Source: a virus
Lineage: Duplodnaviria; Heunggongvirae; Uroviricota; Caudoviricetes
IMG/VR virus record: IMGVR_UViG_2541047807_000011
Direction: 5' to 3' (one strand)
DNA length: 34,131 nucleotides
Shown here: piece after piece, positions 24,001 to 30,000 of the stretch
Layout of the letters: each line of letters opens with the position of its first letter
Position numbering within the stretch: position 1 is the stretch's first letter
Program-made: the position numbers

Positions 24001-27000
24001 TAGCCATTCGCCATACCGGGATTTCTTTCTGCTGCGTGACAACAAAAAGCGCCCCGGCAAACGCGCCCACCACAACCCCGAAATCGGTATTGGTGAGAAG
24101 GCCAAACACACTGGCACCACCGATGGTGACTGCCACAGCTCCGCCGCCTGATAAGGGTTCAGACATGAGTTTCTCCTGTAAATCTGAGCCACTGACGGCC
24201 CGTAAATAACACCCGGTCAAAGGCACAGAATGACTTTTGCCGGGCGCTATCCCTTAAGGTGTCTTGTGGTCTGAGTGGACAGGGTAAACGGTATGCTGTG
24301 GTGGGTACTGCTGGGGGTGTTCAGCACCCCCAGCAGGTTGATTATCTGGATGGGTTAAAGAGAAGCGAGTTTTAATGGTGGCTTATAACATGCCCGCGCC
24401 AGCAGGTTAGCTCTTTCCACGGCATTACGCATTTCCCGTTCCGCGTCAATCATTCTGTTTACGGCTGACAGCACTTCATCATGATTCGTTACTGATTCCG
24501 GGCTTTGGGCCTGTTTCGCCAGGTAACTGGATAAACTGCACATTTCAGCATGTCGGCGACGGGCTGCATCCCGGGCCTTGTCTGAAAATGCGGTATATTC
24601 ACCGAGCACTGCATAGTCGATATCGGTGTCAGAACGCATCATTTCGTGTCTCCTTTTTTCTGAGGCCCATTAATCAAAAAGCCCCACCTGGGTGGGGCTT
24701 TTCAGCGAAGTCTGTTTTTGTCGTCGGTGTATCAGCTGCCATGCGTACCGGTCTGAAATGCCGTAACGGGGACAGAGCAGTGCCAGCGCCTGCCGGTGTG
24801 AGCATCCGCCTTTTACATGCTGCTGTAAATCAGCCATAAAACGGGTGTTACGCAGGGCACGTAACGCATGATCGCAACGGGGAATGTAAAACGGTGCGCC
24901 GCCAAGAAAACGGATCAGTTTGTTGATTTCGTCTTCGGTCAGCACGTCATGTAACAGGGCATGGACACCGCCGGTGCGTTCGGCGTGTACGCCGGTTTTA
25001 CCGCTTAACGTCACGCCACCAAAAGAACGAATCAACCGGGTCAGGGCGGGGAAGCCAATCACGCTAATCAGTTGCTGCACGGAATCGGGCAGCAGTGCCT
25101 GCGCATCGCGAAGATCTGTTTCACTGAAGGTCTGCATGATGGCGTCTCCGGTAGTAACTTACTGTTATTATAGCCATACATGATCGCCTGTACAGACCAC
25201 AAAAAAAGCCCCTGCATGGCAGGGGCTAAACTAAGTCTTATTTAGTCAGGTCTAGAATAACCAGGCCTTTTCTTGATTCTATTTGCTCTTTACCAAAAAC
25301 AAACGAATCAAAACAATCCATACGATATTCTTTAAACTGATTTCTTGAACGCTCCAGAAACTGCCTGTCATCCCTGATAACGTTAGACCAGTAATCCTGT
25401 AGCTGGTTTTTCATTTTTATGCAGGAACCATACACAGGATCAAGCGGGTCGTCCCCCAGTTTACTGGCCTGTTCATCCAGTTGTTTTAGTCCTTTTTTGA
25501 TATTCTTCCACTCTTCAATATTTCCCTGCTGATACTGCGATGCCGCTTCTGGCATAGCGTAATAAAGTTTTCCACTTTCCCGAAGCATCTGTTCAGCCAA
25601 TGGCTTCATATCCTGATAACGTTTCAGTTCCTTTTGCGCCTGTTCCTCTGTCTGTGCCAGCACAGAACAAGAGAAAATAACCCCTACTAAACAAAACAAC
25701 CATTTTTTCATCATTGATTTCTCCTTCTTGAATCTTTAACCAGCGCCACCATCACTCCAAAAAGCTGTTCATCCGTCAGCCATTCGATCACATGTTGCTT
25801 ATACATGTGAGATGCCAGTCCTTCCGCATACGCCCAGGAACGACCGGCATCAGCCAGCAACGCTTCAATTTTGGATAATATCGATTTTCTGCTCATTGCA
25901 ACACGGGGGCGGCGACCTTTACCGGCGGGTGCCTTGCGCGGAAATCCCTGTTCATGCATGTATTCCCGGATGATGCGCAGTTCATCGAGGTTGCAGCGTG
26001 TGGTGCTGGTTTTACCGGTCAGGCGGGCCAGCGTCTGGCGATAAAGGACATCATCCCACCCCAGATACGCCTGACCGGCTTTAATGGCTCCGATCATCTT
26101 TTTCAGCATGTTTGTTATCCTCAAAACGCACGGTAAAACGTGAAACGCCAATCCCTGACAAGAACGCAGCGGCACGGTCAAGAGACAGCCATGTCTTGTA
26201 ATCGCCACGGCGTTCCTGTAGAAAATAGGACACCCCGGCGCGGCGATTCACAGCGAATAGATGATACACACCACCGAACCGCTGCACGACAAACTCATCC
26301 ACGCCACCGCTTTCAGCCTGTTGCCTGAAAGCTGTCATTCCGATTTGTTCAATCTTCATAATGACCAAAACATCACTTTTGGCAGACCAAAACATATGTT
26401 TTGGTCTGCTATTGGTTATTATTAAATTACTTTGCGTTAGTGTGATTCTTCCAGCGATTTTGTGTCGCGCTTCTGTTTCGCCAGACACCGTAAAAACGAA
26501 TAGAGGACCACTCCCTAAAACCAAGATATCTATAGCGAACAACAAGTCGATTTGAGATACGGATAAGTTGCCCTGGCTTTGCTATTAGCAGTCTTGCCTT
26601 ACGGTTTTTCATCATTTTGCTCTCCTGCGTTTCTTTGCTTCGCGTCGTGCAGCTGCAATACCGGTATGGCGCTTTGGTGCCGGGATGATGCTGTCAGCCA
26701 TCAGGGCATGCGGCTTTGCAATTAGCGCAGAAGCCCAAAAACGAGTCGGGTATGGTAATAAACCGATAAACGCTACACGCATTACGCACCTCCTTTGGCG
26801 TCAATATTTACAGCCTGGCAAGCCTCGTTGAGCACCCAGTCAACCGCGTCTTTCCATGCTCCGGTTTCGACTGGCGGATTCTCACACTTTACCTGTTCAT
26901 AGAAACGCACTGCTTTAACTAGTCCTTCCGGCACTACCGACGCTGGCGGGGCAGCATAAAGCTCATGCATTCCATCAGGTAGCAAGTGACCTACATACTC

Positions 27001-30000
27001 ACTGAACCCATCAACACACATGCATCCATCTTCAACAATGCATGACGCTACTGGCAAAGCCACCTCCCGTGCCTCCAGTTCTTCTGCCCACTCCCGAAGC
27101 CCTTCAATCTCACCATTACGAGCTATCAGATCGCGACACAGTCTTTCGTTTTCATCCAGCAACGCCTGCACAACCTCCGGCGTAGCCGCAGCATGAAAAG
27201 CCTGTAGGTTCTGCCATGTCGTATCCCCCTTCGCGGCCTCTGCCACCTCACGCAGTGCCTGATAGTTAACTTCACTCACTGGTTGCCTCCTTTTTCCATG
27301 TTTTCAGACTTTCACCACAGAACGGGCAAAAACACATGGCAACACCACGACCGACATATTGGCCGGAGTGAATTTGAGCAATGTCTAAGCCTGGCTCGCC
27401 GGTGTTTATATTCACGCGTTCCGGGATAAATATGCCTTTACTCTTAAAGGCTGGATTTCCATATTCGAGTGCTTTTGCCAGTACCGCACACGGTTCTATC
27501 TGATTGCCATTAATTCGACACTTTAATTCACTCACTTCAACTCCTCCCGACGACGTTCCTGAAGTTCCAGCATTGCAGCCCGGAAATCCTGCCACCATTC
27601 CTCATCGGCAACGGGTGTGTTCCGCTCCAGCACCTTGTCCGCATCGGCAATCAGTCTGGTCAGGCTCTTATCGCTTATTCTGGTTTGCTGGTTCACTGCG
27701 CCGCCTCCTGTTTTGCCACTTTAAACGCCCGTAACATCGGGACAGTCTTGCCGTAGATGACGGTTCTCATTAAAAGGCCTCCGCCACTCTGGTGGTTTAC
27801 TTCAGGGGCTACAAACAACGCCGCATCCACAACCCGGTTATAGCGGCGAAACTCCCAGAGCCAGCAGGTAACAATGATTTTTGCTTTAGTCCCATAGTTA
27901 TAAAATTCAATATTCATTTGCAGTTAAACCTTCTTTTATGGCGTTCTACGGCGGCTTTCATGGCGTTGTGCACGGTTCTTTTAATAATCCGGCGTCCCGC
28001 ACTGTCATAGAACCGCCACCGGGAAGCCCCCGGATATTTAGGGAACTCAACCGCCGCGCTACCGTCATTCATCCTGTATTCGTGGCGTTCTCCGGGAGGC
28101 TGGTATATTGCTTCGGTAACACTGAGAAGTTTAAAAGCCATCGTTACACCCTCCCCAGTGCCAGCGGTCTGTTGCTCTGACCATTAACCCCCTGATGCAG
28201 CCTGGCGTTTTTCCCGGCGATAAAACCGGCAGTAGCAGCAAACTCTGCACCCCGGCATGCTTTAGCTGTGCGCATATCCCCGTCGCGCAGTCCCTTAGTG
28301 CCGTGCAGGTTCTTTCTGTAAAGCTCAAGGCGGCTTTTTTCTTCCGGGGAGACGTCATACACCGCAATGACATCTCGGGCACCAAAGACCCAGCCTTCAC
28401 AGAACTGGTCGCCACGGGCTACCCGCGTGGACGGGCCGCAACGTTTGCAGTGTTTATCCTGATATTTCTTGCGCTCTGCCATCATCTGACGGGAAAGCAC
28501 ATCAAACGCGTAAGCCGCGATTTCCGGGCGGCTGTCAGAGCCATAAAAACGCACGTGACGCTTGAGTGAACCAGAAGCCCGGTACTCACCGGAGATGTAA
28601 CACTCGACGCCGAAGGCTTTACAGACCAGGTCACACAGGATGTGCATATAACGCGGCGGCGTACTGGCATCACTCGGCGCACCCGCGCTGGCAGCTTCCT
28701 GAATGTCGAACAATTCCGCGTCGTTTTCGCTGATGCCATGCTGGCGCATATAAGCCAGGGCTTTTGCAATAGCGTTAGCGGCTTCTTCCGGGCTTGATGT
28801 TCCTCTGGCAAGGCGTAACAGTTTTTTAATTTTGGCAATGTATTTGCTTTTATTTTCCATAATGAATTTCTCTTATTCAGGCGCAGACCTGTTTACCTGC
28901 GCCATAAAAAAGTCATGAATAAGAATTAAAAATCTGAGATGTCAGTTAATTGCTGCTTCAGCGAAACACGCTCGGAATAAAAACCATTACTTTCACCGCA
29001 CCATCTGACAACGACACAACCTTTTGATGTAGCGAACTTAAAGAATGACCACGTCTGGCTACCGTTTTCGGTATCACTGGATTCAGTTACGACTTCCGCT
29101 TCAGTGATAACAACTCCTTCCAGGTCTGTCAGGTCGCCAACAATGTCCTCAATCCAGACGTTTTCACAACATTCCTGATAGTGGAAAAACGTAAATACAA
29201 CACCCCAGCCATCCACGTGGCGTTCACCACAAAAAACAAGTTCGTTGTTTTGATTCGTAAACACCTTATCGAATTTGCACCCAAGCATTTCATTGATAAC
29301 GGTAACACTCATTTTCATTTCTCCAGATTCAGGCGTAAGCCAGCCCCGGCGGGTTTACGCCTGTTTTAAATAACAATTAAAAACAAATTAAATTAATGCG
29401 GTGCTTTCAGCGTTTCGACTTTTACGAAATAAGGCTCGATATTAATTTCAACCACACAACCACATTTAAAATCTCTGGCAGGTGCAACAGTTTTTACCAC
29501 CCGACCACCACGCACTGCCCGATGTGCAATATGCATGAAGCGAGTCCCTACCGGATATAGCTGATTAAAGTTCTTCGCGTTCATGAGGCGGTGTCCATCC
29601 TTTCAGGTGAGCATTAGCACAGAACTCTGCCCGGTGTTCCGCCCAGATGCGGCGTAGGGTGCTACACGGGCTTTGTGCTGCCTTACGCCACAGCTTTTCA
29701 GCTTCGGCATAATCGCCACGTTGTTCTGCTCTGGATGCGCCAAGCGAATACGCTGCGCAACGGTTCCCGGCTCTGTACTCTTTGATATCCTGATGCATGT
29801 TAAACCCCTGCAATATCAAGCGGGATTGCGCGGTATTCAGCAGAATCACCGACGCGCTCATACACGCGGATATAGCTTTTGCTGCCAATTACCTGGACGG
29901 CTTCACCAATCAGCGACATGGCGTTATTCCAGCGTTCGTCCTCAATCTCGAGGCGACGCAGGGCCAGAACGCGACCGGTGTTGATGTTGCCTTCCTTGTC

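Follow-up and report, generated by a model that had tools for sequence, protein, structure and literature searches.

The question raised by this locus is whether the gaps in a chain of small early genes of a Mu-like prophage are filled by protein-coding genes that its open reading frame (ORF) track does not show, and where a gene lying between them begins. The DNA in question is the IMG/VR virus record IMGVR_UViG_2541047807_000011, whose full 34,131 nucleotides (nt) are referred to here as the window. A sequence-only reading of the window had proposed two additional ORFs, one of 54 codons (o54) and one of 56 codons (o56), and had moved the start of a neighboring four-cysteine gene (Zn87) from an ATG to a GTG further downstream. 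The explanation that best fits the data as a whole, with a probability of about 0.85, is that o54 and o56 are coding, that Zn87 starts at GTG 27535, and that these genes sit in a packed cassette of the lambdoid type within a Mu-like early region.

Coding status of o54 and o56

An ORF of about 55 codons is not significant alone, because 117 ORFs of at least 30 amino acids (aa) overlap the 10-kb stretch considered here. The case for genes therefore rests on conservation and on codon-position constraint among relatives, for which DNA alignments were made with 33 viral loci fetched for o54 and 80 fetched for o56.

The 54-codon ORF had been described as a GTG-start frame at 27532-27696 with an AGGAGG ribosome binding site and GTGA overlaps at both ends, and the minus strand of the window bears this out. 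The GTG of o54 (27696) is the first start codon past an in-frame TAA. It lies 7 nt downstream of the Shine-Dalgarno (SD) sequence AGGAGG (27704-27709), which is embedded in the 3'-terminal part of g74, the upstream gene (74 aa). The o54 start overlaps the TGA of g74 as GTGA, and the o54 TGA (27532-27534) in turn overlaps the GTG of the next gene (27535-27533). The phrog_14672 profile matches o54 with an E value of 6.2e-34 over residues 1-53 of a 56-position profile, and a homolog search returned 24 protein clusters. The ratio of nonsynonymous to synonymous substitution rates (dN/dS) is 0.31 in the o54 frame (0.24 in the core) compared to 1.05-1.35 in the other two frames, and restricting the comparison to the 16 distinct standalone GTG-start copies, which reach down to about 64% amino-acid identity, again gives 0.31. 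The frame is kept in all 16 of these copies and in fused forms, and the SD sequence ACAGGAG(G/A) is conserved in 16/16 of them, behind two different upstream genes.

For the 56-codon ORF, the length and the TAATG and ATGA overlaps stood but the low end did not. It had been placed at 26616, which misses the last sense codon (26615) by 1 nt and the stop by 4 nt; o56 (56 aa, ATG start, minus strand) occupies 26612-26782 including its stop. Its ATG overlaps the TAA of an Ea22-like gene as TAATG, its TGA overlaps the ATG of the following gene, o62, as ATGA, and its SD sequence, AAGGAGGT, is found at 26788-26795. The phrog_13831 profile matches with an E value of 8.2e-36 (1-57 of 58), and homologs fell into 78 protein clusters. 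The related loci yielded 94 copies, with 57 distinct sequences, and every one of them is unbroken over its 56-58 codons; the sole indel is 3 nt long and in frame. The start junction is TAATG (87 copies) or TAGTG (8 copies) in 95/95 cases, behind 24 different upstream contexts. By the pooled Nei-Gojobori method dN/dS is 0.34 in the o56 frame compared to 0.89 and 0.90 in the other two.

If the early operon instead had non-coding spacers in which o54 and o56 arose as ORFs by chance, the abundance of ORFs of such length in the 10-kb stretch and the lack of a Pfam family for either one would be in keeping with that. However, frames are intact in every related locus examined and indels occur only in frame, dN/dS is near 0.3 only in the called frame, the PHROG matches are strong, and SD sequence and start are kept behind different upstream genes. 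The comparative data thus effectively refute this explanation, which is left with next to no probability. Conservation and constraint among related prophages had been named beforehand as the check on the proposal, and with intact frames and dN/dS of 0.24-0.34 in the called frames against 0.9-1.35 elsewhere, the outcome favors it. By the comparative sequence evidence, both o54 and o56 encode proteins and are bona fide genes. An Rfam scan of the whole window matched no RNA family and so lends no support to a known structured RNA instead of the ORFs.

Both genes were probably missed from the ORF track through the default 60-aa cut-off of the ORF lister, a program that also takes the first start codon of each ORF as its beginning. 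An ORF list made with such a floor, and with every start taken at the first start codon past a stop, gives a false picture of this operon, with two genes lost and one start placed 63 nt too far upstream.

The start codon of the four-cysteine gene

The misplaced start is that of Zn87, an 87-aa protein (27272-27535, minus strand, phrog_4030) when read from GTG 27535. This GTG is in frame with ATG 27598 and lies 21 codons downstream of it, with GGAGGAG (27541-27547) 5 nt before the GTG. A start at ATG 27598, which would make the gene overlap o54 by 66 nt, has in its favor that ATG is the commoner start codon and that one deposited annotation has the long form. That annotation is P0104, the single 110-aa long ATG form among 47 Zn87 homolog clusters, of which 43 are 79-94 aa long and three are truncated (52-53 aa).

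Several lines of evidence argue against the upstream start. The ATG falls within the invariant Glu-Trp-Trp codons of o54, and the 21 codons of overlap give a dN/dS of 0.34 when read in the o54 frame and 1.8 in the frame of the Zn87 extension; the extension (27536-27598, minus strand) is not coding in this frame. Where Zn87 homologs stand behind unrelated upstream genes, similarity begins exactly at the start codon and continues with AGT-GAA/GAG; the start codon itself is ATG in one such locus (L034) and GTG in four others (L028, L110, L107 and L086). Additionally, the phrog_4030 profile (85 positions) fits the short form, aligning over residues 2-85 with an E value of 2.8e-29, and the exact short protein is present on 69 public contigs whereas the long form is absent from a collection of 15 billion proteins. 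A start at ATG 27598 is accordingly considered extremely improbable. The GTG had been preferred in the sequence-only reading, and homolog starts, profile fit, frame constraint and databases all agree with it. From these sequence comparisons, the four-cysteine gene begins at GTG 27535, and ATG 27598 is read as a by-product of the E-W-W codons of o54. The first-start rule of the lister likely explains why the gene was shown from that ATG.

The invariant cysteines of Zn87 are C6, C16, C70 and C73, spaced C-x9-C ... C-x2-C, which makes metal binding plausible. The AlphaFold model is mostly beta, with a predicted local distance difference test (pLDDT) score of 73, and gave no significant structural neighbor in PDB or BFVD. 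'Zinc ribbon' was the label of the sequence-only reading, and the fold is not established.

o54 as a detachable module of Ea22-like proteins

The o54 protein is acidic (isoelectric point, pI, 5) and forms a two-helix module with a conserved Ser/Thr-Pro turn and EWW and ELQERR motifs; its consensus is ISDKSL..LIADADK.LER..P...EWW....R.A.LELQERR. Among 1.8 billion representative proteins, a profile search yielded no more than 30 clusters, of which about half are standalone proteins of 53-69 aa; in the remainder the module is fused to other sequence. It is internal to a 234-aa protein of locus L029 (2602-3306), where it follows the Ead_Ea22 region (residues 20-135), and it occupies residues 124-174 of P0211, again following an Ead_Ea22 region. 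In Ead/Ea22-like proteins its place is between the coiled coil and the C-terminal domain. In P0216 it precedes DUF551, which is the C-terminal domain of one Ea22 variant of Shiga toxin (Stx) phages (PMC10834534). In Yersinia phage vB_YpM_44 it is the C-terminal half of a 121-aa protein (L117 2288-2653), and in the other fused clusters it stands at the end of other small proteins.

No Pfam match to o54 was found, so that o54 is not a member of the Ead_Ea22 family (PF13935). Because the module also lies after the Ead_Ea22 region in the fusions, o54 is taken to be an accessory module tied to the Ead/Ea22 family rather than a member of it. NCBIfam gave o54 a chance-level match only (E 0.091, 12.8 bits against a 90-bit cut-off). 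A '63-aa segment' has been described in Stx Ea22 variants (PMC10834534); it was considered as a counterpart of o54 and rejected, because o54 has no similarity to the 933W Ea22 variant.

These fusions raise the possibility that o54 is a domain fragment of an Ead/Ea22-like gene that was stranded by deletion and has no function of its own. Such an origin would agree with the make-up of the 30 representative clusters, roughly half of which carry the same module within larger proteins or as their terminal domain, and with a small family confined to enterobacterial phages. However, the 16 distinct standalone copies keep GTG, SD sequence and frame with a dN/dS of 0.31, many distant relatives are also standalone at 53-69 aa, and the exact o54 protein is found on 405 contigs. 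A functionless remnant is thus very unlikely, and o54 is best seen, from its sequence relatives, as a part of the Ea22 mosaic toolkit that can be detached and that stands free here. It could act by protein-protein contacts, possibly with the adjacent Ea22-like protein, although this suggestion is tentative and has the odds against it.

o56 as a conserved basic peptide

The o56 protein has two conserved parts. The N-terminal motif is M-R-V-A-x-I-G-L-L-P-Y-P-T-R-F-W (LLP-x-P-x-R-F/L-W across homologs), and the C-terminus is an arginine-rich helix, TGIAAARR.AKKRRRAK. The protein has a pI of 12, with 13 K+R compared to 2 D+E. AlphaFold gave it no stable fold, and the model (pLDDT 61, predicted template modeling score 0.24) was too poor for a structure search, with only the basic C-terminal helix reaching a pLDDT of about 75. 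A membrane peptide was considered and rejected as the leading reading, the best 19-residue Kyte-Doolittle value being 1.25, below the membrane-helix level; two conserved prolines and an arginine within the segment also oppose it.

The junctions around o56 suggest a different role, namely that it is a conserved junction or recombination linker which relays ribosomes from ea22 to the downstream gene, with no function for the peptide itself. The o56 module has sharp limits of homology, about 15 nt before the ATG on one side and 18-30 nt past the stop on the other, and its tail codons hold the AGGAG and ATG of downstream genes, all of which share an initial MKNRKAK and differ beyond it. The existence of frameshifted tails and the poor AlphaFold model would also agree with this proposal. 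However, purifying selection in the N-terminal 24 codons (dN/dS 0.26), far from the junction, equals that in the tail (0.25), the LLP-x-P-x-R-F/L-W motif is retained in homologs at only 75-78% nucleotide identity, and the length is fixed at 56-58 codons. A pure linker is therefore improbable, and a conserved peptide remains the preferred reading of o56.

Two observations do weigh against attributing all of this conservation to the peptide. A minority of o56 clusters (P0083, P0092 and P0093) are frameshifted so that the basic tail becomes acidic, and P0093 is present on 95 contigs; the tail is therefore dispensable in places or these copies are in decay. The stretch of DNA coding for the tail includes the SD sequence and start of the downstream gene as well, so that conservation of the tail is partly not at the protein level. 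In most relatives the last o56 codons are AAG AAA CGC AGG AGA GCA AAA CGA TGA and contain the SD sequence and ATG of the next gene. In the window the AGGAG of o62 falls within the codons for the RRRAK tail, and a C-to-T change turns CGA into TGA, which makes o56 one codon shorter and creates an ATGATG start for o62.

Judged from its sequence and from the modeled helix, o56 might bind nucleic acid or another polyanionic partner, which is a doubtful proposition. In having a short, highly basic Ala/Arg-rich helix within a small early protein, o56 resembles peptides with an arginine-rich motif, the N-terminus of lambda N being one. It differs from lambda N in having no sequence homology to it, in the C-terminal position of the motif, and in that no boxB-like RNA target was identified.

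Two further searches concern o56. Members of its 90% cluster with 143-150 aa are unrelated to o56 and share the C-terminal domain of the Ea22-like protein; they were set aside as a clustering artefact. Strings of the o56 peptide were not found in the supplements of the Sakai Ribo-seq small-gene paper.

Prior annotation and distribution

The closest complete genome is that of Escherichia coli O127:H6 E2348/69, which carries a Mu-like prophage that is 98% identical in nucleotide sequence from o54 onward. The sequence-only reading had presented the genes as unlisted, and this does not hold, because RefSeq and the original 2009 E2348/69 annotation already call o54, Zn87 and o56. The RefSeq annotation, made with the Prokaryotic Genome Annotation Pipeline (PGAP), has the same boundaries: o54 is E2348C_RS28770 (WP_000082800.1, 165 nt), the four-cysteine gene is RS14175 (WP_001292367.1), called from the overlapping start codon, and o56 is RS28775 (WP_001261588.1). 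The accessions CAS10190, CAS10191, CAS10193 and CAS10194 show that they were present in the original genome annotation. The homolog of o56 in phiV10 is likewise annotated, as PhiV10p49. The genes are thus already known as hypothetical proteins, and the structural observation is correct without adding anything new.

The E2348/69 prophage has the same gene order, overlaps and starts as the window, including GTG for o54 and the four-cysteine gene. It differs in that its Zn protein has 89 aa instead of 87 aa, its o62 homolog was left unannotated by PGAP, and a gene for a hypothetical protein and a DUF4752 gene (L001 3284-3818) replace the two genes directly upstream of o54 in the window (g75 and g74, 27693-28141). 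The mosaic joint between these two gene pairs is within about 20 nt of the o54 SD sequence, and in E2348/69 the DUF4752 gene overlaps o54 by 29 nt.

Exact copies of the proteins were found on 405 (o54), 128 (o56), 69 (short Zn87) and 233 (o62) public contigs, and all are named 'hypothetical protein'. The homologs found for o54, o56 and Zn87 come only from Escherichia, Salmonella, Citrobacter, Yersinia and their near kin. No study of the o54, o56 or Zn87 families was found in the literature on the exo-xis region, on Mu-like early regions, or on ea22 and anti-defence. The significance of the locus is accordingly low, as these are already-annotated hypothetical genes in an ordinary dense accessory cassette. 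They are candidates for a small-protein screen, with nothing that sets them apart from hundreds of similar phage hypotheticals.

A separate observation concerns the original record of phage 933W (L115, AF125520), in which a 51-aa o56 homolog (2501-2656) and the following MKNRKAK gene (2653-2841) are unannotated. Both lie in the gap between L0069 (ea22-like) and L0068.

Organization and expression of the early region

Pfam matches to Mu-transpos_C, HTH_Tnp_Mu_1, AAA_22, GemA, Mor and DUF3164 identify the window as a Mu-like transposable prophage. The order is that of a Mu-like early region on one strand (minus), with the Mu-type transposase A (31853-33895, Mu-transpos_C and HTH_Tnp_Mu_1) and the B-like AAA ATPase (30941-31834, AAA_22) upstream and GemA (25711-26109) and Mor (24670-25137) downstream; DUF3164 and DUF2786/DUF7168 genes are also encoded in the window on this strand. 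Between the B gene and GemA sits the accessory cassette g75-g74-o54-Zn87-Ea22-like-o56-o62. Its members not yet described are g75 (27914-28141, phrog_9400), g74 (74 aa, 27693-27917, phrog_1001), the Ead/Ea22-like gene (165 aa, GTG start, 26782-27279, PF13935 at 5.8e-15), which overlaps Zn87 by 8 nt, and o62 (62 aa, basic, 26427-26615, phrog_1380 at 1e-9), which begins MMKNRKA. All are on the minus strand.

A chain of translationally coupled small genes had been proposed here, and the tiling of the genes supports the chain itself. From the DUF2786 gene (28860) to o62 (26427), its last member, eight genes follow each other without a gap, with junctions of +2, -4, -4, -4, -8, -1 and -4 nt, and each has its own SD sequence inside the preceding gene. 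Omitting o54 and o56 would open two holes of some 165 nt each in the chain.

By synteny with phage Mu, the cassette genes are most likely transcribed in the early (Pe) transcript. Translation most likely proceeds as a relay, as starts overlap or abut preceding stops (GTGA, ATGA, TAATG) and strong SD sequences lie in the last codons of the preceding gene; ribosomes ending one gene would re-initiate on the next, giving roughly co-ordinated output. Translational coupling is inferred from this gene architecture. Against this picture it should be noted that both early-promoter transcription and coupling rest on architecture and on analogy with Mu, and that a good SD sequence on every gene of the chain means that independent initiation could suffice without coupling.

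A promoter and terminator scan detected no strong minus-strand terminator-like site in 26427-28860. The strongest minus-strand terminator-like hairpin is at 25227-25207, directly 3' of a 158-aa gene, and consists of AGCCCCTGC-cat-GCAGGGGCT, a 9-bp GC-rich stem followed by T7. Beyond this site, upstream of Mor, a promoter-like TGTACA-16-TATAAT is found at 25167-25194 (minus strand). This arrangement suggests that the early transcript ends at 25207-25227 and that Mor has its own promoter. The scan is consistent with a single early transcript over the chain but does not prove it.

The 158-aa gene (25238-25714, minus strand) has a signal-peptide-like N-terminus (MMKKWLFCLVGVIFSCSVLAQ), overlaps GemA by 4 nt and has no Pfam family. 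The overlapping chain is closed by a 67-nt gap (26360-26426) between o62 and a 92-aa gene (phrog_7844), and in it lies a 28-bp perfect palindrome at 26382-26409, formed by GCAGACCAAAACAT directly followed by ATGTTTTGGTCTGC. The palindrome is identical in 9 other fetched loci, the RNA of the gap region folds at -25.4 kcal/mol (z = -4.95), and a third GACCAAAACAT half-site is found at about 26363-26373, just upstream of the ATG of the 92-aa gene (26359). The absence of a T-run sets it apart from a classic terminator; an operator is one possible role, and a hairpin acting in translation or processing is another.

Phage Mu has a semi-essential early region (kil, gam, sot, arm, cim, lig, gemA, mor) with many small, dense, dispensable genes, and the same holds for the stretch between B and GemA in the window, which presumably corresponds to that region by position. 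The stretch in the window differs in content, which is of the lambdoid type, as no sequence relationship of o54, o56 or Zn87 to any Mu early protein was found.

Relationship to the lambdoid exo-xis region

BLAST of the 1.9-kb region against the fetched loci revealed a sharp mosaic. Stx phages, phiV10, RCS47 and P1 variants share the o56 module, which reaches from about 15 nt before the ATG to 18-30 nt past the stop, at a nucleotide identity of about 90%, and in 933W, phiV10 and P1-like phages o56 is conserved beside ea22-like genes. In 933W the o56 homolog comes directly after the ea22-like L0069 in the exo-xis region (exo, orf60a, orf63, orf61, ea22). In locus L029 the order is a Zn87 homolog, three Ead/Ea22-like genes, an o56 homolog and two MKNRKAK genes, the second of which is the o62 homolog. 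Because of the shared o56 module and these two gene orders, the block Zn87-Ea22-o56-o62 is identified as an exo-xis-type cassette of lambdoid phages within a Mu-like early region. These sequence comparisons show that the Zn87-Ea22-o56-MKNRKA part of the cassette is not Mu-specific.

The likeness to the lambdoid region covers an Ead/Ea22-like gene, a TAATG junction, an o56 homolog and then an MKNRKAK gene, with the Zn87 homolog preceding the ea22-like gene in L029. Differences are also seen. The block in the window lies between B and GemA of a transposable Mu-like phage instead of between exo and xis, it has no orf60a, orf63, orf61 or orf73, and its Ea22-like protein is short (165 aa) with another C-terminal domain. 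An enterobacterial Mu-like prophage thus carries, in its dispensable early region, small modules that the lambdoid exo-xis region also has, and these shared accessory modules are joined at conserved gene-boundary sequences.

The exo-xis region comprises early accessory genes, transcribed from pL, that influence the lysis-lysogeny decision (PMC7093339, PMC8614690). Ea22 was reported to favor lysogeny (PMC7093339), and the genes downstream of ea22 are a variable, uncharacterised set (PMC7093339, PMC10834534, PMC8614690). By analogy with this region, o54 and o56 may be accessory proteins that modulate host or development rather than essential transposition or replication functions, a suggestion made with low confidence. 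The sequence-only reading had pointed to host takeover and anti-defence as usual functions of small early proteins in transposable phages. Pfam and PADLOC gave no match for o54, o56, Zn87 or o62, NCBIfam gave none for o56, Zn87 or o62, and PDB profile searches with o54 and o56 gave chance-level results only (E of at least 0.29). In the literature search, one paper mentioned ea22 and anti-defense together, only in passing. A more ambitious proposal is that o56 is a self-contained mobile micro-protein cassette spread across Mu-like, lambdoid/Stx, phiV10 and P1-like phages, that its arginine-rich helix targets host or phage nucleic acid or a defence component, that o54 modulates the Ea22-like tetramer, and that together they form a host-modulation or counter-defence unit. 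This would be a long shot.

Other boundaries in these phages have similar features. MKNRKAK(I/R/L)L opens all the unrelated genes that follow o56 in different phages, which diverge beyond it (26597-26615 in the window; L029 3485-3849; L115 2653-2841), and several MKNRKAK genes share a C-terminal ...QNRWKNH(L)RTKGE that bears the SD sequence of the following gene. Such conserved gene-boundary 'linkers' look like sequences that serve both ribosome hand-over and module exchange by homology. Another shuffled module is the C-terminal domain of the Ea22-like protein in the window (26785-27000; ...VKAVRFYEQVKCENPPVETGAWKDAVDWVLNEACQAVN...), since unrelated prophage proteins of 143-150 aa from E. coli and Salmonella end in it as well.

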